Shown: positions 5,176 through 63,941, counted from the stretch's first letter. The stretch is DNA of 64,000 bases from Verrucomicrobiota bacterium (GCA_031378375.1 JANNEF010000313.1:3893-67892), one strand, 5' to 3'. Numbers and translations: made by a program. Notes: generated from the sequence alone by a model not told the origin.

Positions 5176-5254
5176 AAAAAATTGAGGCGCAAAAATCCCC
5201 GGTGGGTTCGGCGGAGTCAACGGTAGAATCGGAGCGTGAGGCGGGGCAGGGAAC

Positions 5255-5389
5255 CAGTAGTCAGTAGTCAGTAGTCAGTAGTCAGTAGTCAGTAGTCAGT
5301 AGTCAGTAGTCAGTAGTCAGTAGTCAGTAGTCAGTAGTCAGTAGTCAGTAGTCAGTAGTCAGTAGTCAGTAGTCAGTAGGTCAGTAGGT
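5255..5389. repeat. heptanucleotide microsatellite: (CAGTAGT)x17 perfect, then 2x CAGTAGGT
   Basis: Counted directly. 17 uninterrupted 7-nt units span 5255-5373, followed by two 8-nt variants at 5374-5389. Located in the purH/phoU intergenic region. Confidence 0.97.
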
Positions 5390-5423
5390 CAGTGAACCCG
5401 CGCCGGCACCCGTCGCACCGCCG

Positions 5424-5464
5424 TCCCCACTGGTTCACTGGTTACTGACCTACTGATTACTGAT
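5424..5464 (+). repeat. ACTGA-type heptamer arm (reverse complement of the CAGTAGT family); right arm of an imperfect inverted repeat
   Basis: tccccactggttcactggttactgacctactgattactgat. It is complementary to ...gtcagtaggtcagtgaacc at 5380-5398 across a GC-rich ~25-35-nt spacer. Confidence 0.8.
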
Positions 5465-8168: not shown

Positions 8169-8348
8169 GCCACGTTCTCCATAATGGTTTTGCGCAGGTG
8201 AAAAGGTCTTGCGCAGCGGGCAAGGGTGCGGCAGATGAACGATTCAAGTTTTCAATCTCCCAACGCCATCCAACCTCAACCGAGGTTTGGCGCAGCGCCA
8301 CCGACACGCCCGCACACTCCCGGCCTTCGCGCCCTGAACCGCCGGATG

Positions 8349-8410
8349 TTTGTAGTCCCACCTTTAGGCGGTTGGAGGGCCGTGATTCCGCCTGAAGGCG
8401 GGACTACAAA
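8349..8410. repeat. REP-like palindromic element (tttgtagtccc...gggactacaaa)
   Basis: 23-nt arms at 8349-8371 and 8388-8410 are near-complementary, with a 16-nt loop. Confidence 0.85.
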
Positions 8411-8432
8411 CGGCGAACCACCCAGCCAGACC

Positions 8433-8728
8433 GATGCTTTCGGTTCTGCCAACCCCATCCTGCCCGGACGGACTGCCACTTTCGGACCCGAAAGCCCCAT
8501 CCGGCTGAACAGGACCACCTCATTCGGTACCGAAAGCCAGTTCCGCCAGGTCAGAATGCCTCTTTCAGACCCGAAAGCCTCATTCCCCCTGGACCGGACG
8601 CCACTTTCGGACCCGAAAATGCCATTCCGCTTCACCGGAACGCCACTTACAGAACCGAAAATGCCATTCCGCCACGCCAGTCTGCCACCTTCGGCCATGA
8701 AAATCAGCACCTTACGCAAAAACCATGG
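8433..8728. repeat. degenerate ~42-bp tandem array (6-7 units), each with a TTTCGG-ac-CCGAAA-type palindromic core
   Basis: Unit anchors at 8476, 8516, 8559, 8601, 8643 and 8685, with a weaker one at 8433. Both cores and inter-core segments are homologous between units. Confidence 0.8.
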
Positions 8729-8821
8729 TTTTCGCACTTTCGATGTAAGTGAAAATGCTCAAAAAACGCCACTTTTCCCATCCCAACTTGAAACCAGAAA
8801 CTAGAAACCAGAAACTTCCCC

Positions 8822-8867
8822 TCCCCACTGACCGACTGACTCACTGATTACTGACCTACTGATTACT
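8822..8867 (+). repeat. ACTGA-type heptamer arm, second copy
   Basis: tccccactgaccgactgactcactgattactgacctactgattact. It shares both ends (tccccactg... and ...ttactgacctactgattact) with the element at 5424-5464. It ends 31 nt before the ATG at 8899. Confidence 0.85.
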
Positions 8868-19819: not shown

Positions 19820-22414
19820 ATGAAAATTTGTCGTGTCTTCGGATGGTTGTCGTCTTTGCTTCTCTGCGCGGTTGCTGCGCCCCGCCTCTCCGCCGCAGAG
19901 GCCACGCCCCAGCCACCAGTCTTCACCGGCGGAGTCGTGACCAACGGCCAGCGGGTGTTTAGTTGGACGCCCTATCCCGCCGCCGACCAATACCGGATTC
20001 TCACGACTTCAAACCTGCTGGCCCCATTCATTGAGGATTTGGCGGGCGTGTTGTCCGGTAACACTTGGATCCAAAACTCGACGGCTCCGGTGGGATTTCA
20101 CCGGCTGCAGGTCACGCCGCTTTCCTCCAACGCCCTTTTTGCCGCGACGCTGCTCAACCGGATCACGTACGGGCCGTCGCCGGATTCCGTCGAGCGCATC
20201 GCCACCATCGGGCCGCAACGGTTTCTGGAGGAGCAATTGGCTTGGGAGCAAATCGCGGAGACGATTGACACGGACCCACCCATCACGAATGCGCCCATAA
20301 TCGTGCTGCCACCACCACCGCCGCCGCCGCTGACGAACTGGATACGCGTCGCGGTTACCGGCACCTCCTCTGGTCTCAATTTTGGAATGTATCTCAGCGG
20401 TGGATCGGGGCGGGTCTATGTTGACGACGTGAGGTTGGTTTACGGCACGAACGCGGACGTGGGTTCAAACCTCCTCGCGAATGCGGATTTTGAAGACCCG
20501 GAGTTGACGAACGGCTGGATTCGCGGAAGCAGCATCACCACCGGCACGATGATCACGAACAGCCCGACTGTGGACGGCCTCGCCGCCTCCGGCACCAATT
20601 GTGTGCTGCTGGTCGGCAACAACAATTCGACGCTCTCCGCCGGGTTGTATCAGCCTTTCACCAACGCGAACCCGCCAACGAGCCAGCGGTTTACATTGAG
20701 TTTCTCCTACCTGCCCGTGCGCCAGACTGTCAGCAACGTCTACCTCATCGTACGCACGTCCGGCACCGCTGCCACCTCGACCGTGCCGTTGCCCAACCCT
20801 CCGCCCACGCCGCCCACGCCGCCCACGCCGCCCACGCCGCCGCCGGCCGTTTCCCCCGCGTATGAGAAGCTGACGAACACGCTGGCGCAGATCGAAGACC
20901 TGCGCTCCTGGCACGTTCTCCACGCCGTCCGCAGCCAGCGCCAGCTTTACGAAATCCTCGTGCAATTCTTCGACAACCACTTCTGCACTCAGTATTCCAA
21001 AACGAAGGAATGGTTCGACAACGAGAAGGAGCAGTACGTGACCAACGAAACCGTCCGCGCGCGGCTGGCCACCGAGATGGATTGGCGCGAGCACGCCAAG
21101 TGGCGCGCGGCCCTGATGAACACCAACTGCAATTTTTACGATCTGCTCAAGATCAGCATTGAGAGTCCGGCGATGATCATCTACCTCGACACGGTGCTGA
21201 ACAAGAAGTCCGCTGCCAACGAGAACTACGGGCGCGAAATCCTCGAGCTCCACACCTTCGGCGCCGACAACGGTTACGTGCAGCAGGACATCGTGGATCT
21301 GGCCAAGGTCTGGACCGGCTGGTCGGTGGACAAAAAGGCTCCCGCCGATGCGAACAACCCCTTCGCCCCAGCCGTCCTCGACCGCACCAACGACGTCGGC
21401 GTGTGGACGCTGAACTTCGTCACCAACGATCACAGCTACGCCACCAAGCGGATGTTCACCAACGTGGTGGTTGCCCCGCGCTTCGGCCCGCCATACGGCG
21501 GCCAGCCCTACTCGCTCATCCTCTCCAACTACACCGGCACCAACGGGCTGGCCGAAGGCTACGCGGTCATAGATCATCTGGCCAAGTCGCCATACACCGC
21601 CGAGTTCCTGAGCGTGAAACTCTGCCGACTCTTCGTCCACGAGCACTTCGAAATCGACACCTATGACTACACCGCTCCGAATCCCTCGCTGGAAGTGCAA
21701 CTGGTCAAAGCGTGCATCACCGCGTGGGACACTCCGGCCGCCGACGGACGGCGCGGCAACATCCGTTCCATTCTCAACGTGATTCTCAACTCCGATCTCT
21801 TCCGCGGCCATGCGGCCTCGGCGCAGAAGGTCAAGACCCCGCTCGAACTGGCTGTGAGCGCCGTCCGTGCCCTGCGTTTGAACAGCACGGACATCAACGG
21901 CTGGGTCAGCAGCACGGGGGACACCGATGGCTACGGCATCGCTTACAGCAGCGGCAGTTCCAGCCCGCTCGTGCGCATGGGCAACATGAGCCTGTTCAAC
22001 AAGGCCGAGCCGGACGGCTACTCTGAATTCGGCCGCCTCTGGCTTAACACGGCCAACCTGTGCGAGCGCATGCGCTTCGTGCAGCACCTGCTGATGCCCA
22101 CGACCAGCAGCACCAAGTCTTCCGATTATGGAAGCGGCGGCACAAAGAACACCTCCAATCCGGCGGCGTTGGTCCGGGCGAAACTCCCCGCCGCCAGTTG
22201 GAACAACGCCGGCGCGGTCGCGGATTATTTCCTCGGAGTCCTTTACCCGGGAGAAGGCCGCGCCAACCTCGACCTGGACCGGCAGGCCGCCATCAATTTC
22301 CTGAACACCGACGACGCAGGCAACACCTCCACCTTCATTTTGGCGAGCCACGACACCCGGCTGCGCGGCATGGTGGCGATGCTGATGTGTTTTCCCCGCT
22401 TCCAGGAACAATAA
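19820..22414 (+). CDS. DUF1800 family protein with N-terminal FN3-like + CBM-like extension (paralogue)
   Basis: Signal MKICRVFGWLSSLLLCAVAAPRLSA. VYVDDVRLVYGTNADVGSNLLANADFE CBM-like domain. (PTP)n linker. DUF1800 core FFDNHFCTQYSK and NENYGREILELHTFGADNGYVQQDI. Confidence 0.85.
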   Translation: MKICRVFGWLSSLLLCAVAAPRLSAAEATPQPPVFTGGVVTNGQRVFSWTPYPAADQYRILTTSNLLAPFIEDLAGVLSGNTWIQNSTAPVGFHRLQVTPLSSNALFAATLLNRITYGPSPDSVERIATIGPQRFLEEQLAWEQIAETIDTDPPITNAPIIVLPPPPPPPLTNWIRVAVTGTSSGLNFGMYLSGGSGRVYVDDVRLVYGTNADVGSNLLANADFEDPELTNGWIRGSSITTGTMITNSPTVDGLAASGTNCVLLVGNNNSTLSAGLYQPFTNANPPTSQRFTLSFSYLPVRQTVSNVYLIVRTSGTAATSTVPLPNPPPTPPTPPTPPTPPPAVSPAYEKLTNTLAQIEDLRSWHVLHAVRSQRQLYEILVQFFDNHFCTQYSKTKEWFDNEKEQYVTNETVRARLATEMDWREHAKWRAALMNTNCNFYDLLKISIESPAMIIYLDTVLNKKSAANENYGREILELHTFGADNGYVQQDIVDLAKVWTGWSVDKKAPADANNPFAPAVLDRTNDVGVWTLNFVTNDHSYATKRMFTNVVVAPRFGPPYGGQPYSLILSNYTGTNGLAEGYAVIDHLAKSPYTAEFLSVKLCRLFVHEHFEIDTYDYTAPNPSLEVQLVKACITAWDTPAADGRRGNIRSILNVILNSDLFRGHAASAQKVKTPLELAVSAVRALRLNSTDINGWVSSTGDTDGYGIAYSSGSSSPLVRMGNMSLFNKAEPDGYSEFGRLWLNTANLCERMRFVQHLLMPTTSSTKSSDYGSGGTKNTSNPAALVRAKLPAASWNNAGAVADYFLGVLYPGEGRANLDLDRQAAINFLNTDDAGNTSTFILASHDTRLRGMVAMLMCFPRFQEQ

Positions 22415-24118: not shown

Positions 24119-25408
24119 ATGAAAAACATTTTTGGATGGAACACGCTCACTCTCGCGGTCGCCACCTTGGTGATTTGGCCGGTGGTTCAGACGTTTGCGG
24201 CCGATCCGGCGGCCCCAACCCCGTTGTCCCCACCCTTGCCGGGTTTACGGCCGATTGTCACCAATCGGCAGGCGTTATTGACCCCGCCGAACCTGACCAA
24301 CCGGCAGATTACCGTAGCACCGCCCCCAGCCTCCGGGCAGCCGGTGGCGGCGAATGGGTTGCCCCCGGCGCCGACTGCGCGCGTGCTGCCGCAGCCGGTC
24401 ATACCGGGTCTGAACACGCCCCCCAACGCGATTGTCTGGGATGCCGAGATCAAGGAGGTCAACGCCACGTTTGGCGACACGAACGCGCATTTCACCTTCT
24501 GGCTCACGAACACGCACACCAGCGAAGTGCTCGTGAACAATGTTCGCACCTCCTGCGGTTGCACCGTCGCCAAGCTGCCGGAACAGCCCTGGCACATCGC
24601 GCCTGGTGCCAGCGGGCCGATTGAAGTCAGCATGGACCTTCGCGGCCGGCGCGGGGTGCAAAGCAAGAGTGTCACGGTTGAGAGCAGCAGCGGTATCAAG
24701 AGTCTCGTGGTCAAGGCGAACATCGCCGAGGTGGGCGCCACCGCCACGCCGGAAGACGGCAAGCGGGTGAACAATCTGCAGGCGGCACTGGCGGACCGGC
24801 AGGCGGTGTTCAAAGGCGATTGCGCCTCGTGCCACGTCGAGCCGGCCAAGGGCAAGATGGGTGCGGAGCTTTACACCGCCGCGTGCGCCATCTGCCACGA
24901 CGCCGAACATCGCGCGGCGATGGTGCCGGACCTGAAGGTGCGCCATCCGAGCACGGCTTACGATTGGAAGACCTGGATCATGTACGGTCGGCCCGGTTCG
25001 TTGATGCCCGGCTTCGCCAAGAGCGAGGGCGGCCCGTTGACCGACGAGCAGATCGCTTCACTGTCGGATCTTTTGTGGCAGAAATACGGCAGCCCCACAA
25101 CGGGGACCGTGCCCGGCATCAAGCCGGTTTCACCGGCTTTTTCGGTGCCGCCAGCTACGCCGCCCACGCCGCCCACGCCGCCCACGCCGCCTTCTACACC
25201 AGTAATCGCTCCACGCGCGGCGGTCGTTGCGCCCTCATCGCCTGCGGTTTCTCCTGTCGCAACGGCCCCGGCGCTGATTCGTCCGGCACCACCTGCTGCG
25301 GCCACGGCTCCGGTGCTGCCCGCCGCGCCCAAGGTGGCTGTGCCTGCCGTCAAGCCTGCTCCTCCAGCCAGCAGCATCAGCGTGTTCCCGTTCCCGAAGG
25401 ACAAATAG
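24119..25408 (+). CDS. DUF1573 domain / c-type cytochrome fusion protein with Pro-rich tail
   Basis: Signal-anchor MKNIFGWNTLTLAVATLVIWPVVQTFA. DUF1573 hallmark VRTSCGCTVAKL. Two CXXCH motifs (CASCH, CAICH) followed by GSLMPGF...LTDEQIASLSDLL, typical of class I cytochrome c. ATG at 24119 preferred over TTG at 24095. Confidence 0.8.
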   Translation: MKNIFGWNTLTLAVATLVIWPVVQTFAADPAAPTPLSPPLPGLRPIVTNRQALLTPPNLTNRQITVAPPPASGQPVAANGLPPAPTARVLPQPVIPGLNTPPNAIVWDAEIKEVNATFGDTNAHFTFWLTNTHTSEVLVNNVRTSCGCTVAKLPEQPWHIAPGASGPIEVSMDLRGRRGVQSKSVTVESSSGIKSLVVKANIAEVGATATPEDGKRVNNLQAALADRQAVFKGDCASCHVEPAKGKMGAELYTAACAICHDAEHRAAMVPDLKVRHPSTAYDWKTWIMYGRPGSLMPGFAKSEGGPLTDEQIASLSDLLWQKYGSPTTGTVPGIKPVSPAFSVPPATPPTPPTPPTPPSTPVIAPRAAVVAPSSPAVSPVATAPALIRPAPPAAATAPVLPAAPKVAVPAVKPAPPASSISVFPFPKDK

Positions 25409-51167: not shown

Positions 51168-51216
51168 GTGCCGGAGTAATCAGTGGGTCAGTAATCAGTG
51201 AACCAGTTGTCAGTCG
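51168..51216 (-). repeat. ACTGA-type heptamer arm, third copy (reads gacgactgacaactggttcactgattactgacccactgattact on the minus strand)
   Basis: It occupies the whole 49-nt gap between the isomerase stop (51217) and the FucU-like start (51167). Orientation relative to the downstream start codon is the same as at 5424 and 8822. Confidence 0.85.
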
Positions 51217-57710: not shown

Positions 57711-57971
57711 GCGCGCGTAAAGGTTGGCCCCAAAGGTTAGTGCGTCGCGCCCGCGGCACGAGGAGATGCCAGGCGACGTGTCGGGATCTCTTTCGCCTCG
57801 CTCACGTCAGTCATTGAGAGCAGGCAAACAGAGCAGCGCATTTGGTTCAAGGACTATCGCCAAGGTGGCAGCGTCTCAGGGATGGATTCGTGGCTTCAAG
57901 TGCAGGTGCGAAGTCAGGCGCGCGCGAACTTTGACCTTTGCCCCGTGGGGGTTTGGTGGCACGGTGGCCGG

Positions 57972-58805
<834 letters not shown>

Positions 58806-58869: not shown

Positions 58870-60144
58870 ATGCCACAATTTGCTTACAAGGCCCGGCGGC
58901 GTTCGGGCGAGGTCGTGCAGGGGGTTCTCGACGTGGCGGACCGTTCGGCGGCGCTCGTGCAGATCGAACGGCAGGGCTTGTTCCCCGTAATGGTGGACGC
59001 CGCCAAGGGCGCGGTCGCTGCCGCTGAAAAAGAAGCCGAACGCAAGCCGGGCAAATCGTCCTCGTTGATGCCGGTGGCGATGCGCGAGGCCATGGGGCGC
59101 AAGCGCAAGCCGAAGTTGCAGGAACTGGCGACGTTCACCCAGCAGTTGGCCAACCTGCTCAAGTGCGGCATGCCGCTGACGGTGGCGCTGCAAAGCATGT
59201 CACACCTGGAGTCCAAGGGCATCCCCTCGGACGTGAGCAAGGATCTCAAGCAGGACGTCATGGAGGGCAAAAGCCTGTCCGACGCGATGGCCAAGAAGCC
59301 CGACATCTTCTCCGACCTCTACGTGAACATGGTCAAAGCCGGCGAGCAGGCGGGCGCGCTGGTCGAGGTGCTCAGGCGTCTGGCCACTCACTTCGAACGG
59401 TTCGCGGAGGTGCAGTCCAAGTTCACCTCCGCGCTGATTTACCCGGCGATCGTGGCGACGGTGGGCATCGTCATCATCATTTTCTTCATGACCTTCATGC
59501 TGCCGAAGTTCATGACGATCTTTCAGGGATTGAAGGTTCCGTTGCCGTGGGCGACCCGGATGCTGATGGGGGCGTCGGACTTTTTCACCTATTATTGGTG
59601 GTTGATGCTGGCGGTGCTCATCGTCGCTTCGGTGATCTGGAAACGGTTTTCGGCCACGGAGGAAGGCAAGCGCAAGATTGACGGGTGGAAGATGCGCGCG
59701 CCCATTTTGGGCAAAGCGGTAAAGTTGAATCTGTTCGGTCAGTTCGCGCGCACCCTTTCGACGTTGCTCATCAACGGCGTGCCCGTGCTCACGGCGCTCA
59801 AAATCACCGAGCAAATCGTGCCCAACCGCATTCTGAAGGAAGCCATCGCCCAAACGCGCGAAGGTGTGACTGACGGTAAAACCATCGCCCAGCCGCTGGC
59901 CAAGAGCAAACTGTTCCCGCAACTCATGATTGACCTGCTGAAGATTGGCGAGGAAACCGGCGATGTCCCGGGCGCGTTGCAGAACATCGCCGAGACTTAC
60001 GAGAGTGAACTGAGCATCCAGTTGCGCGTGATGACCAATTTGATCGAGCCGATCATGATCATCTGCATGGCCGTGGGCGTGGGCTTCCTGCTGTTCAGCG
60101 TGCTTTCAGCCATGTTCGCCATCACGAGCAGCATCAACCGGTGA
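58870..60144 (+). CDS. gspF: type II secretion / type IV pilus platform protein (GspF/PilC family)
   Basis: 424 aa. Duplicated T2SF domains (FTQQLANLLKCGMPLTVAL...; FARTLSTLLINGVPVLTAL...) and three TM segments. Confidence 0.9.
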   Translation: MPQFAYKARRRSGEVVQGVLDVADRSAALVQIERQGLFPVMVDAAKGAVAAAEKEAERKPGKSSSLMPVAMREAMGRKRKPKLQELATFTQQLANLLKCGMPLTVALQSMSHLESKGIPSDVSKDLKQDVMEGKSLSDAMAKKPDIFSDLYVNMVKAGEQAGALVEVLRRLATHFERFAEVQSKFTSALIYPAIVATVGIVIIIFFMTFMLPKFMTIFQGLKVPLPWATRMLMGASDFFTYYWWLMLAVLIVASVIWKRFSATEEGKRKIDGWKMRAPILGKAVKLNLFGQFARTLSTLLINGVPVLTALKITEQIVPNRILKEAIAQTREGVTDGKTIAQPLAKSKLFPQLMIDLLKIGEETGDVPGALQNIAETYESELSIQLRVMTNLIEPIMIICMAVGVGFLLFSVLSAMFAITSSINR

Positions 60145-60148
60145 GATT

Positions 60149-60769
60149 ATGAGAGTTCGTAGTCAGTGGTCAGTCGTCAGTAGTCAGGGCCTGCGCAGGC
60201 GTGGGCTGCGGACTACGGACTGCGGACTACGGACTGGCTGCGCCTTCACGCTCGTCGAAATCATGGTTGTCGTTGCCATCATGGGCGTGGTGATGACGAT
60301 GGCCATCCCGTCCATGTGGCGGAAGCTGCACCCTGAATCCATGCAGAAAGCCGTCTCGGACATGATGGAGGCGTGCAGCCACGCGCGGGCGAACGCGATT
60401 TTGGGCGGCGTGATCACCGAACTGGTCGTCCGTCCCTACGACCGGCAAATCAGCGTCCACGCCACCGGCAGTGCCACGGCGGATGATTCGCCATATGGCG
60501 GAGGAGACGCACCGCCATCGCCGAAATCAGGAGGCGGTGGGGAGGGTTTTTCCTTCCGCGTGGCCGAGAACATCATGATCGAAGGGATCCGGTTGAACTT
60601 GGAGGACTGGACGGAGGACGAGGAGGTGCGCGTGCGTTTTTATCCGAATGGAACGGCGGATGAGTTCAGCATTTTTTTCGTTTCGGACAAGGCGGAGCGA
60701 CGGCAGATTTTTCTGGAAGTGACGACGGGGCTCGCGGATCTGGAGTCGGATCCGCTAAAATTCAGGTGA
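60149..60769 (+). CDS. pseudopilin with prepilin-type N-terminal methylation motif (GspH-like), unusually long leader
   Basis: AFTLVEIMVVVAIMGVVMTMAIPS motif begins at codon 32-33. The only in-frame start upstream of it is the ATG at 60149. C-terminus is GspH-like (RVRFYPNGTADEFSIFF). Confidence 0.8.
   Translation: MRVRSQWSVVSSQGLRRRGLRTTDCGLRTGCAFTLVEIMVVVAIMGVVMTMAIPSMWRKLHPESMQKAVSDMMEACSHARANAILGGVITELVVRPYDRQISVHATGSATADDSPYGGGDAPPSPKSGGGGEGFSFRVAENIMIEGIRLNLEDWTEDEEVRVRFYPNGTADEFSIFFVSDKAERRQIFLEVTTGLADLESDPLKFR
60158..60236. repeat. heptamer-repeat inverted pair: (GTNGTCA)x4, GC spacer, (CGGACTR)x4
   Basis: cgtagtcagtggtcagtcgtcagtagtcag (60158-60187) and cggactacggactgcggactacggactgg (60209-60236). 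gtagtc and gactac are complementary. Same heptamer family as 5255-5373. Confidence 0.8.
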
Positions 60770-60773
60770 ACGC

Positions 60774-61238
60774 GTGAACCTTTTGATTTTCACTCACGAT
60801 TCACACGCCACGCGCCACGGCGCGCGCACCAGCGCGTTCACCCTGCTGGAAGTCATCGTGGCGTGCGCGATTTTCTTCATGGCAGTATTCTCGATTTTAT
60901 CACTGGTGACGGGCGGACTGGCAGCCGCGCGAGCGTTGCAACAACGCGAGCCGGACGCGGGGATGATTGCATCCGTGGACATCCAGACGAACATCATGGT
61001 GGAGGAAAGCCGGCAGGGGGATTTCGAGGATTTGTATCCCGGCCTGTATCCGGGCTACTCCTGGGGTTTCGATTCGGTGGAAATCGGGAGCAACGGTTTG
61101 TTTCAGGTGGATTACGTCGTGGCCCGCGCGCAAGGCAAGAAGGGCGTTTCCGAAACCCGCATGCAAGTTCTGATGTTCATGCCCGGTTCGCCGCCTGGCA
61201 GCGCCTCGAAGGCGATGGGAGGATTGGGAGGAAGATGA
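60774..61238 (+). CDS. pseudopilin (GspI-like) with prepilin-type N-terminal motif
   Basis: SAFTLLEVIVACAIFFMAVFSILSL. 154 aa. GTG start. Confidence 0.75.
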   Translation: MNLLIFTHDSHATRHGARTSAFTLLEVIVACAIFFMAVFSILSLVTGGLAAARALQQREPDAGMIASVDIQTNIMVEESRQGDFEDLYPGLYPGYSWGFDSVEIGSNGLFQVDYVVARAQGKKGVSETRMQVLMFMPGSPPGSASKAMGGLGGR

Positions 61239-62068
61239 TGCCCGTCGCGTTCAAATGGAACGGTTCGATCCTCGCCGCCCGGCGCAGTCGCAGTCGCGCT
61301 GCGTTTACCATCCTGGAAATCATGATCGCCATCTCGATTTTCGCGATGGTACTGACGGCGATTTATACCATTTGGATTTCGATTCTGAAAGGATCGAAGA
61401 CTGCCATGGCCGCCGCCGCAGGAGTGCAACGGTCGCGCATCGCCATCCGTTCCATCGAAGACGCGCTGCTGACAACGACGATGTACAGCGCGAACGTCAA
61501 CGAGTATTCCTTCGTCGGCGAGGCCAACAGTGTGAGCATGTTGGCTCGGCTGCCGGCGACTTTTCCAGGCGTTGGCCGCTACGGCGATCAGGTGGTGCGA
61601 CGGGTGAGCTTTTACACCCAGGCCGGAAAAGACGGGATGGACGAACTGGTCATGTCGCAGCATCCCATGCTGCTGGACACAACTGGAACGGTCGAGGCCT
61701 ACACAATCACACTGGCGCGCGATGTGAGCGAGTTCTCATTGGAGTATTATGACGCTCAAAAAAAGAAGTGGAGCGAAGATTGGATCATCACCACCAACCA
61801 ACTGCCGAAGATGGTACGGGTCATTCTTGGATTGGGCAAGCTGCCCGGGTCGAACTCGAAAGCGCAGGATGTGGTAGCGAAGATTGTGGCCTTGCCGGCA
61901 ACCGCGGTGGGGCCGGATCTCCAGGGAGCTGTGCCGGCCACGGGCGGTTTGAACACAAACCGGCTGGGCCAGGATTCGCGAATGGGGAACGACAGGCTGC
62001 GGCAAGGCGGCGGCGGCGGCACGCAGCCGGGCGGGAACCAGTTCAAGAACCCCAAGAATCCCTTCTAA
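61235..62068 (+). CDS. pseudopilin (GspJ-like) with prepilin-type N-terminal motif
   Basis: AAFTILEIMIAISIFAMVLTAIYT. ATG at 61235 overlaps the previous stop (ATGA). Gly-rich tail. Confidence 0.75.
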   Translation: MMPVAFKWNGSILAARRSRSRAAFTILEIMIAISIFAMVLTAIYTIWISILKGSKTAMAAAAGVQRSRIAIRSIEDALLTTTMYSANVNEYSFVGEANSVSMLARLPATFPGVGRYGDQVVRRVSFYTQAGKDGMDELVMSQHPMLLDTTGTVEAYTITLARDVSEFSLEYYDAQKKKWSEDWIITTNQLPKMVRVILGLGKLPGSNSKAQDVVAKIVALPATAVGPDLQGAVPATGGLNTNRLGQDSRMGNDRLRQGGGGGTQPGGNQFKNPKNPF

Positions 62069-62082
62069 GGGTGGTCCCGGGC

Positions 62083-63183
62083 ATGAAGATAAAACCGCAT
62101 TCAACTTCCTCCGGCATCGCGCTCATCATGGTGATGATCGTGGTGATGGTGCTGGCGATTCTGGCGGGCGGCTTCGCTTATTCGATGAAGGTGGAGACGA
62201 AGCTGGCGCGTAATGCGTCGAATGACTCGGAGTTGGAATGGATGGGGCGGTCGGGAATTGAACTGGCGAAATACATCCTCGCGCAGGAGTTTCAAAAACG
62301 CGACGGGCGTTACGATTCATTGCGAGACCGATGGGCGGGTGGCCCAGGCGATACGAACGGCGTGCTGGCCGAAATCCCCATGGACCATTACCAACTGGGC
62401 AACGGCTGGTTCTCGCTGAAAATGGTGGACATGGACCGCAAGTTCAACATCAACGTGGCCGCCAACCCGCGCCAGCGCCAACCGGAGGTGCTGCGGCGTG
62501 CGCTCACACTCGTCGGCGTGGACGCAGCGGCGGTTCCGACGATTGTGGATTCCATTTTGGACTGGTGCGATCCGAATGACAGCACCGAACCCAATGGAAC
62601 GGAGAGTGATACTTACCAGCATTCGACCCCGCCGTATTTTGCCAAGAACGGGCCGATTGACGACCTTTCGGAATTGCTGCTTATCAACGGGGTGACGCCG
62701 GCGATGTATTGGGGTTCTTCTGGCGGTGGCGCCCGTGTTCAGGTGATGAATCGCCCCGTACTCGGTCGGCGAACGCCGAGCGAGGAGCCGGCCTATCTGG
62801 TCGGATTCGTGGAATTATTTACGACGATTTCGAGTGGGAAAATCAACGCCAACACGGCTTCGCTCACGGATTTACAGGTATTGCCGTTCATTGAGGAGAA
62901 CATAGCAGCAGCGATTATTTCAGGGCCAGCTGGTCGCGCCGGCCCGAATGGTACAGACGGCGATGAGGATGACATGCCCTTTCATAGCGTGGGCGAAATG
63001 GCGCGAGTCCCTGAACTCCAACAGGTGCCGCCACAGTTTCTACAACAGTTTTTCACCACGCAAAGCCTTGTCTTCGAGGTTCGTGTTGATGCGAATATTA
63101 ACGGCAGCCGCCGTCAGTTTGTGGCGTTAGTGCGCCGCAATAGCCCGCGCGATATTCAGATCCTGAATCTGAGCTGGAAATAA
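62083..63183 (+). CDS. gspK: type II secretion minor pseudopilin GspK-like
   Basis: SSGIALIMVMIVVMVLAIL anchor. GspK-typical KFNINVA, LDWCDPNDS and ELLLINGVTPAMY segments. Confidence 0.8.
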   Translation: MKIKPHSTSSGIALIMVMIVVMVLAILAGGFAYSMKVETKLARNASNDSELEWMGRSGIELAKYILAQEFQKRDGRYDSLRDRWAGGPGDTNGVLAEIPMDHYQLGNGWFSLKMVDMDRKFNINVAANPRQRQPEVLRRALTLVGVDAAAVPTIVDSILDWCDPNDSTEPNGTESDTYQHSTPPYFAKNGPIDDLSELLLINGVTPAMYWGSSGGGARVQVMNRPVLGRRTPSEEPAYLVGFVELFTTISSGKINANTASLTDLQVLPFIEENIAAAIISGPAGRAGPNGTDGDEDDMPFHSVGEMARVPELQQVPPQFLQQFFTTQSLVFEVRVDANINGSRRQFVALVRRNSPRDIQILNLSWK

Positions 63184-63197
63184 TCCCACTCGCTCAC

Positions 63198-63941
63198 TTG
63201 GGAAAAATTGTTTTTGTCACGGGAACTGACACGGGCGCTGGCAAGACGCTGCTGACCGCCTCGTTGCTTCTTCATCTGCGCCAAAGTGGAGTGAAGGCGT
63301 TGGCAATGAAGCCATTTTGTTCGGGGCCGCGCTCGGACGTTCGACTGATTCAGAATATCCAGAATTCGGAAGTTCCGGACGAAGTGGTGAACCCGTTTTA
63401 CTTTCCTGAATCGCTCGCTCCACTCGTCGCATCCAGGAAGCATCGGAAAAGAATTCTTATCGCCGACGTTCTCGAACGCATCAGCAGCATTAGTGAAGAA
63501 TGCGATTATCTGCTGGTGGAGGGTGCTGGCGGTTTGCTCGCGCCACTCGGTGAACATTACACGGCACTGGACATCATAAGGGAGCTGCGCTGTGGGGTGC
63601 TTGTAGTCGCTCGCAACCGGTTGGGCACGCTTAACCACACCCTACTCACCGTTAAGGCCCTGGAGAGTGTCGCGCATGGCGGGTTTACGGTCGTTTTGTC
63701 AGACGAGCGGCTACCTGACGATTCTGCGGAAACGAACCTCTTAACTTTGCAAGAATTGCTGGCGCCAGCGGAAGTATTGACGCTTCCATATTTGGGAAAG
63801 CGCGCGACCCAGTTGATGGGCGTGAGAAAGAATCAAAAAAAAGTCAAAAAAGTACTTGCACCGATTCTGGGTTCCGCTATTTTCGGCGTCGTTCGCAGTG
63901 ACAGCACGCGAATGTTAAAGACAAGTAACAAAACCTGTTGA
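63198..63941 (+). CDS. bioD: dethiobiotin synthase
   Basis: VTGTDTGAGKT P-loop and LLVEGAGGLLAPL motif. TTG start. Confidence 0.85.
   Translation: MGKIVFVTGTDTGAGKTLLTASLLLHLRQSGVKALAMKPFCSGPRSDVRLIQNIQNSEVPDEVVNPFYFPESLAPLVASRKHRKRILIADVLERISSISEECDYLLVEGAGGLLAPLGEHYTALDIIRELRCGVLVVARNRLGTLNHTLLTVKALESVAHGGFTVVLSDERLPDDSAETNLLTLQELLAPAEVLTLPYLGKRATQLMGVRKNQKKVKKVLAPILGSAIFGVVRSDSTRMLKTSNKTC

Follow-up and report, generated by a model that had tools for sequence, protein, structure and literature searches.

Within a 64,000-nucleotide stretch of DNA from a Verrucomicrobiota bacterium (JANNEF010000313.1:3893-67892; hereinafter designated the window), a type II secretion-like operon carries an unusual gene start: the first minor pseudopilin gene after gspF, a GspH-like open reading frame (ORF) of 206 aa on the plus strand (60149..60769), begins with two inverted arrays of 7-nt repeats that fold into a long hairpin. 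The locus raises the question of what such an element does inside a coding sequence, that is, whether it is read by ribosomes, whether it switches the gene by frameshifting and whether its stem is selected. We favour, with a probability of roughly 0.55, the reading that the element is a copy of the genome's own heptamer family (CTACTGA/TTACTGA), present as two inverted four-unit arrays in the 5′ end of the gspH-like gene, and that it is a tolerated passenger and no switch.

The start codon (ATG, 60149..60151) lies 4 nt (GATT) past the gspF stop, near a weak Shine-Dalgarno-like GGTGAG at 60140-60145. The 5′ arm of the hairpin (60159..60186; GTAGTCA GTGGTCA GTCGTCA GTAGTCA, with a partial unit from 60154) runs in reverse relative to the genome's CTACTGA unit, and the 3′ arm (60206..60235; CTGCGGA CTACGGA CTGCGGA CTACGGA CT, the four units at 60206-60233) runs forward and has GGA in place of TGA in four of four units. 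A GC-rich spacer or loop of 19 nt (60187..60205), which holds the mini-palindrome CCTGCGCAGG at 60190-60199, separates the two. Tandem Repeats Finder (TRF) reports GTAGTCA x4.1 at 60159-60187 and CGGACTA x3.9 at 60209-60235, the latter alternatively as a 14-mer x2.2 at 100%. The arms 60154-60194 and 60195-60235 (41 nt each) are 71% complementary, and the RNA of 60145-60244 has a predicted folding energy of –48.0 kcal/mol (z-score –3.47 against dinucleotide shuffles, with 1 of 200 shuffles equalling it; –55.1 kcal/mol and z –2.4 in a 131-nt frame). The long stem (60154-60235) lies wholly within the ORF and begins 10 nt past the gspF stop and 3 nt past the AUG; the hairpin does overlap the initiation region, as the initial annotation of this DNA had it.

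Canonical units of the family are untranslatable, because they hold TAG in the reverse form and TGA in the forward one. The leader copy has TGG at codon 7 (60167-60169), in place of the in-frame TAG of a canonical unit, and GGA at 60224-60226, in place of the TGA that a canonical third 3′ unit would put in frame. The GGA present in all four 3′ units leaves one A·G mismatch per stem heptamer. A terminator and promoter scan found no intrinsic terminator at 60154-60250, the stem being followed by GGCTGCGCC with no T-tail; the same scan gave one weak minus-strand promoter-like match within an arm, which was disregarded. Searches of 60050-60350 against Rfam, at gathering thresholds and by E-value, yielded no family, the one chance miRNA-like match scoring 17.5 bits against a threshold of 197.

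Translation of codons 1-32 (60149..60244) gives MRVRSQWSVVSSQGLRRRGLRTTDCGLRTGCA, a hydrophilic leader with a net charge of +6 that runs into the maturation motif A(–1) F(+1) T L V E(+5) at 60242..60259 (A32-F33-T34-L35-V36-E37). The prepilin motif is recognized at residues 32-53 by both Pfam N_methyl (26.5 bits, cut-off 21.2) and NCBIfam IV_pilin_GFxxxE (22.1 bits, cut-off 16.3), and F33, T34, L35 and E37 are invariant across 45 homologues. No canonical start (ATG, GTG or TTG) occurs in frame between 60149 and F33. The anatomy given in the initial annotation, with AFTLVE at codons 32-37, ATG 60149 as the sole canonical in-frame start and a repeat-encoded leader, is correct. Reviews call the –1 Gly invariant in bacteria. 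With its 32 aa and terminal Ala, the window leader departs from the rule of a short, Gly-ending prepilin leader, reviewed leaders spanning 6-26 aa (PMC4471445). Within the family (homologues P0002-P0050), most members have Ala ahead of Phe(+1), and a minority have Gly.

Reading frame of the insert at orthologous junctions

A protein search returned 281 homologues with annotated N-termini of 5 to ~70 residues, many of the long ones resembling translated repeats. From a metagenome scan with the mature protein part, 80 of 287 confirmed matches were analysed; 63 of the 80 loci have both the gspF tail and the FTLIE motif, and the 53 non-redundant loci among these form the junction set, in which Phe(+1) was located by anchoring on FYPNGT. 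Among the matches listed by a genome-contig scan with a full-length alignment (generic [AG]FTL[IV]E), most were unrelated pilins, the usable loci being L001 and L003. We call a junction long when the gap between the gspF stop and Phe(+1) is at least 80 nt, and a start stop-adjacent when it lies within –4 to +12 nt of the gspF stop.

The gap is bimodal among the 53 junctions, measuring 29-78 nt in 20 and 83-363 nt in 33. The 20 short junctions encode leaders of 8-24 aa, and their start mostly overlaps the gspF stop as ATGA. At 31 of the 33 long junctions, a stop-adjacent start is in frame with Phe(+1) and the frame is open, compared with 1/33 in each control frame (binomial P 4e-13, treating loci as independent); the start codon is ATG in 28 of these 31. 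Over all junctions, 50/53 have a stop-adjacent in-frame start. The mean number of stops per junction is 0.18 in the true frame versus 1.30 and 0.97 in the others, and a canonical start within 12 codons of Phe(+1) is found at only three long junctions, as TTG each time. The 33 long junctions show 23 distinct gap lengths, and therefore many independent length changes, all of them frame-preserving.

Because the stop-adjacent start stays in frame and open at nearly all long junctions, the insert is most probably translated as a leader. The frame pattern fits ribosomes that start at the gspF stop and read the insert, not an untranslated spacer, and these comparative data make the case for translation much stronger than the argument from a single sequence. 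The view, put forward when the DNA was first annotated, that the hairpin lies within the reading frame and is read as an unusually long prepilin leader is well supported by this comparison. Leader charge is weak as evidence for translation (+5.8 in frame versus +4.2 and +3.5 in the other frames; hydropathy was also compared).

Public gene calls in this family often begin inside or after FTLIE (L161:107-625 and P0001, P0021, P0030 and P0038-P0040); the L161 gene is called from the TTG of F-T-L, and other family calls start from internal Met codons. A break of the P0001 contig at the repeat was considered and ruled out: the contig begins 4 nt before the ATG, and the Joint Genome Institute (JGI) call starts at the TTG within FTLVE. 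Because calls so often start inside or after the motif, database N-termini and leader lengths of this family are unreliable; many are miscalled, some being truncated at an internal Met or TTG, and the long, spurious-looking ones are probably real.

Heptamer inserts in relatives and in the window

The insert of the window has many counterparts. Sixteen other junctions carry at least three heptamers on each side of a loop, with stems of –34 to –101 kcal/mol, and the hairpins in relatives begin 3-45 nt past the gspF stop. At 15 of the 16, the frame is continuous with a stop-adjacent start; L127, the remaining one, starts from a codon of its own farther downstream. The heptamer sequences themselves are unrelated between loci: CAGGATG/CATCCTG at L111, GAGTTTC/CGAAACA at L140 and L146, GATTGCC/GGCAATC at L124, GCGTGKT/CACGCAM (e.g. 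GCGTGTT/CACGCAA) at L107, L112, L114, L122 and L123, GTGTTCC/GGAACAC at L134 and CTGAATA/GTATTCG at L113. In a neighbour-joining tree of the mature proteins, hairpin loci fill the window's clade and sister taxa differ in their units; a short-leader subclade is nested within this hairpin clade. Hairpins can differ even where the flanks are nearly the same: L122 and L123 are separated by a 33-nt in-frame indel plus substitutions, and L114 is longer than L107 by 42 nt, gained across both arms.

Nor are the inserts confined to the first pseudopilin leader. L124 carries, in frame in its GspI-like leader (MMRLPIADCRLPIAQRRF...AAAFTLLE; 1464-1554), a hairpin of CGATTGC, the unit of its gspH-like leader. 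Another hairpin occupies the GspI-like leader position in L123 (1056-1150), and direct arrays occur in the GspI-like leader of L143 (825-852) and the GspJ-like leader of L112 (1499-1526), all of these likewise in frame. The inserts are genome-specific gene-boundary repeats, which land in leaders where pseudopilin operons have no intergenic space.

A separate observation comes from L122, in which a (GGTTCCG)x4 / (CGGAACC)x4 hairpin (871-948) stands directly after the TAA of an unrelated upstream gene; such elements therefore occupy ordinary intergenic positions too.

Elsewhere in the window, tandem heptamers with an ACTGA core stand at several gene boundaries (5254-5393, 5428-5464, 8827-8867 and 51175-51215, besides 60159-60235). 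The longest is a tract of TCAGTAG (forward CTACTGA) with 18 perfect copies at 5254-5379, scored by TRF as 19.6 units and extending to 5393. The initial annotation had assigned this tract, at 5255, to the same heptamer family as the leader repeat, which stands, and had counted 17 copies, which has to be corrected; the tract also has an inverted partner. Tract, spacer and partner (ACTGGTT/ACTGACC/ACTGATT at 5428-5464) make up a non-coding sister element at 5254..5464, between the divergent genes purH (minus strand) and phoU (plus strand). Each of its arrays is in the forward (NNACTGA) orientation toward the gene it faces, so the apparent inverted pair may be two arrays in 5′ untranslated regions and not a hairpin.

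The other sister arrays are simpler. On the minus strand, direct repeats of NNACTGA units at 51175..51215 (TGA-CGACTGA-CAACTGG-TTCACTGA-TTACTGA-CCCACTGA-TTACTCC-ggcac-ATG) end 5 nt before an ATG and fill the 49 nt that separate a xylose-isomerase-like TIM-barrel gene, at its stop, from the start of rbsD/fucU. On the plus strand, ACTGACC/ACTGATT units at 8827..8867 lie ~30 nt upstream of ATG 8899. Inverted pairs are seen at two of the four heptamer sites in the window, and the leader copy is the intragenic one.

On the explanation that we favour, initiation at 60149 would be coupled to gspF termination, and prepilin peptidase would remove residues 1-32, the repeat-encoded ones included, at A32/F33. 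Because it is cleaved off, the leader sequence would be nearly free to vary and, in an operon with abutting stop and start codons, would offer a gene-boundary repeat its only permissive site. The leader copy would have been made readable by alteration of the in-frame TAG or TGA unit in each arm. Since the stem starts so close to the AUG, its –48 kcal/mol probably reduces independent initiation, so that translation of gspH relies on ribosomes coming from gspF; this damping would be a by-product, not a conserved function.

Switch, regulatory stem or tolerated repeat

The closest relative found is L161 (96% protein identity). Its leader aligns with that of the window without gaps and with 16 substitutions in 96 nt; of the codons that differ, 1 is synonymous and 11 are non-synonymous in the leader, against 37 and 7, respectively, in the mature part. 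Its fold (–32.6 kcal/mol, z –0.27) is indistinguishable from shuffled sequence, and the substitutions are non-compensatory. Because the L161 hairpin has decayed, the structure does not seem to be strongly selected. The L091-L126 clade has long in-frame leaders with a weak RNAalifold consensus (–11 kcal/mol) and an unfavourable covariation term, and since it shows no conserved fold, long leaders are not always hairpins. Leader peptide and stem thus appear only loosely constrained, the constraint falling on length and frame.

It is very improbable that the hairpin is untranslated, with a non-canonical start after ~60236 or at an in-frame CTG (60191 or 60206) and a frame that is open by accident. 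The leader does exceed the reviewed range, and GC-rich sequence is poor in stops, but the length of an untranslated insert would be free modulo 3, which the frame conservation at the long junctions contradicts; moreover, each arm is altered in the single unit that would otherwise bring a stop into frame, and no ATG, GTG or TTG lies between the 3′ arm and F33. The initial annotation had further proposed a phase-variable switch, in which slipped-strand gain or loss of a 7-nt unit toggles the gspH-like gene and, by polarity, gspI/J/K. A unit that is not a multiple of 3 inside the ORF would allow this, its leader-coding location parallels that of CTCTT in Neisseria opa, the sister tract of 18 perfect units implies that slippage occurs in this genome, and related loci do differ in length, if by in-frame amounts (33 nt for L122/L123 and 42 nt for L114/L107). 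We nevertheless consider a switch improbable. No two neighbouring units of the window hairpin are identical, the longest perfect repeat being the 14-mer x2.2, and the longest perfect run over all leader arrays is 4 units, versus 18 in the non-coding tract. None of the hairpin junctions among relatives is in an OFF frame, L127 having a start of its own, and three independent assemblies of one relative (L098, L100 and L101) are identical. Strict constancy of unit number across populations had been named beforehand as an observation that would speak against a switch; in the single comparison available, L161 keeps 4+4 units with no indel despite 17% nucleotide divergence in the leader. As far as these sequences go, nothing indicates that the type II secretion-like operon is phase-variable.

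A more serious alternative, which we hold to be possible though tentative, is a selected cis-regulatory hairpin that sets expression within the operon. It could occlude gspH initiation so that only gspF-coupled translation occurs, or it could stabilize the upstream gspF message or disturb nearby termination in the manner of repetitive extragenic palindromic (REP) sequences. Its position is kept through most of the window's clade despite full turnover of unit sequence, the stems are very stable (–40 to –100 kcal/mol) and close to the gspF stop and, in the window, to the AUG, and hairpins recur at the following pseudopilin junction. On the other hand, L161 retains length and frame while its fold is lost, a nested subclade (L086, L094 and L106) and most outgroups have junctions of 29-68 nt with no hairpin (the L094 leader has 12 codons), the L091-L126 clade has long leaders without conserved structure, and no T-tail follows the stem. 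A bolder and rather doubtful version holds that, across a soil Verrucomicrobiota-like lineage, translatable heptamer hairpins in gspH/I/J-like leaders are selected stems that gate initiation, enforce coupling and set minor-pseudopilin stoichiometry, the repeats letting expression evolve fast with rare frameshift OFF states; if true, such stems would form a novel kind of regulatory repeat, embedded in coding sequence and making use of a peptide that is due to be cleaved off. The tolerated, translated repeat is favoured over the selected regulatory stem, and several points weigh against that preference: the hairpin's presence at the gspF/gspH-like junction in most of the clade could mean selection and not tolerance; a strong stem beside the AUG could matter more than the favoured reading allows; structure decay and the stability of unit number are both judged from a single close relative, L161; the relatives are metagenome contigs without classification; and we infer translation of the hairpin from frame conservation.

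Comparable repeats and the surrounding operon

The unit itself resembles the TAACTGA/TTACTGA heptamers of Beggiatoaceae, Cyanobacteria and Bacteroidetes, whose arrays stand in forward orientation a few bases ahead of start codons and place stops in all frames (MacGregor 2015, PMC4679880). The window shares with them a 7-nt unit with an ACTGA core (CTACTGA/TTACTGA; TTACTGA is named in PMC4679880) in tandem arrays at gene boundaries, and its other three sites fit the upstream-of-start layout, the 51175-51215 array ending just before its ATG. The leader copy differs in being downstream of the start, inside an ORF, arranged as an inverted pair with a long stem and changed from TGA to GGA; the phylum also differs (probably Verrucomicrobiota), and the relatives of the window use unrelated heptamers. 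The Beggiatoaceae arrangement lacks an obvious Shine-Dalgarno sequence, and the 51175-51215 array is similarly placed.

Cyanobacterial short tandemly repeated repetitive (STRR) heptamers are another comparable group. REPs influence the stability of individual mRNA segments and how well the gene preceding them is translated. REPs and bacterial interspersed mosaic elements (BIMEs) of enterobacteria resemble the inserts as species-specific imperfect palindromes that lie just past stops within operons and fold in the mRNA, but they are extragenic by definition and are not tandem heptamers. Rickettsia palindromic elements (RPE; PMC10969869) are, like the inserts, genome-wide palindromic repeats that lie in ORFs, in frame and translated, at tolerant sites; unlike them, RPEs resemble miniature inverted-repeat transposable elements, measure ~150 bp and encode a conserved peptide, whereas the window element is built of heptamers, has no conserved peptide and lies in the part predicted to be cleaved off.

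In Neisseria opa genes, CTCTT repeats that cause phase variation lie in the part coding for the signal peptide. The resemblance to them is superficial: like such contingency loci, the window has a repeat unit not divisible by three in a region coding for a cleavable leader, but theirs are long, perfect and variable between sibling clones, with many OFF alleles, whereas the window has four imperfect units per arm, unchanged in its 96%-identical relative, and no OFF alleles are found among relatives. Heptanucleotide repeats at H. influenzae hmw are a simple-sequence contingency locus (PMC8262952). As for leader length, type IVb prepilins have leaders of ~15-30 aa (PMC4471445), which implies that prepilin peptidases can accept long ones. 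They share with the window protein a hydrophilic, basic leader before an F-x-x-x-E hydrophobic segment; the window protein differs as a minor pseudopilin of type II secretion system (T2SS) type, with a hypervariable leader of 32 aa (53 aa in L114) that ends in Ala in most members.

No earlier account of repeat hairpins in prepilin leaders was found in the literature. The comparison suggests that prepilin leaders can far exceed the textbook 6-26 aa (32 here, up to 53 in relatives) and vary more than that range implies, and that they can serve as a safe harbour for genome-specific repeats in operons without intergenic space. Heptamer-repeat biology, mainly described so far in Cyanobacteria, Beggiatoaceae and Bacteroidetes, would thereby extend to another phylum. 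The differing hairpins at one fixed position also form a natural series that could be used to measure the effect of a stem on translation from a coupled start.

The operon around the leader has the gene order gspF-H-I-J-K, with best matches below the respective cut-offs for GspF, GspI and GspJ and above it for GspK. The gspF-like platform gene (58870..60144, plus strand, stop TGA at 60142-60144) matches Pfam T2SSF at 4e-60, and NCBIfam GspF is its top match with 354 bits, under the equivalog cut-off of 424; its C-terminal tail (..SAMFAITSSINR*) is kept in ~60 ortholog loci. The best NCBIfam match of the 206-aa ORF is GspH (TIGR01708), over residues 33-185 with 38.6 bits against a cut-off of 80, and some of its homologues carry Pfam PF12019 or the JGI name GspH/FimT. 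Downstream on the same strand follow a GspI-like pseudopilin (60774..61238; SAFTLLE, 20-aa leader) 4 nt past the gspH-like stop, a GspJ-like pseudopilin (61235..62068; AAFTILE, 22-23-aa leader) whose start overlaps the gspI-like stop, and a GspK-like minor pseudopilin (62071..63183; NCBIfam T2SS_GspK 154 bits, above the cut-off of 130, and Pfam T2SSK_1st); stop and start codons of these GspI-, GspJ- and GspK-like genes touch or overlap. No gspG, gspE, gspD or prepilin peptidase gene was noticed adjoining the F-H-I-J-K block, no peptidase search of the window having been made. The upstream neighbour of gspF (57882-58805) is a PP-loop ATPase-like ORF, not gspE, with a weak NAD_synthase match below cut-off, and a bioD-like gene (63198-63941) comes after the block.

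Other repeats of the window lie apart from this operon. About five tandem units of ~42 nt (8453-8688), which closely precede the heptamer arrays at 8785-8867, each contain the palindrome CTTTCGGACCCGAAAG, with a 6-bp stem and GGA at the loop; the repeat has no Rfam match, and the ORFs overlapping it have no Pfam match. One possibility is that it encodes a non-coding RNA with several hairpins, a sponge like CsrB/RsmY. Upstream of the 42-nt repeat, a separate stable hairpin at 8337-8418 was matched in Rfam only by miRNA-like entries, by chance and with scores far under threshold. Perfect 9-nt tandem repeats, CCGCCCACG x4.6 at 20801-20841 and ACGCCGCCC x3.9 at 25157-25191, probably encode Pro/Thr-rich linkers in coding sequence.

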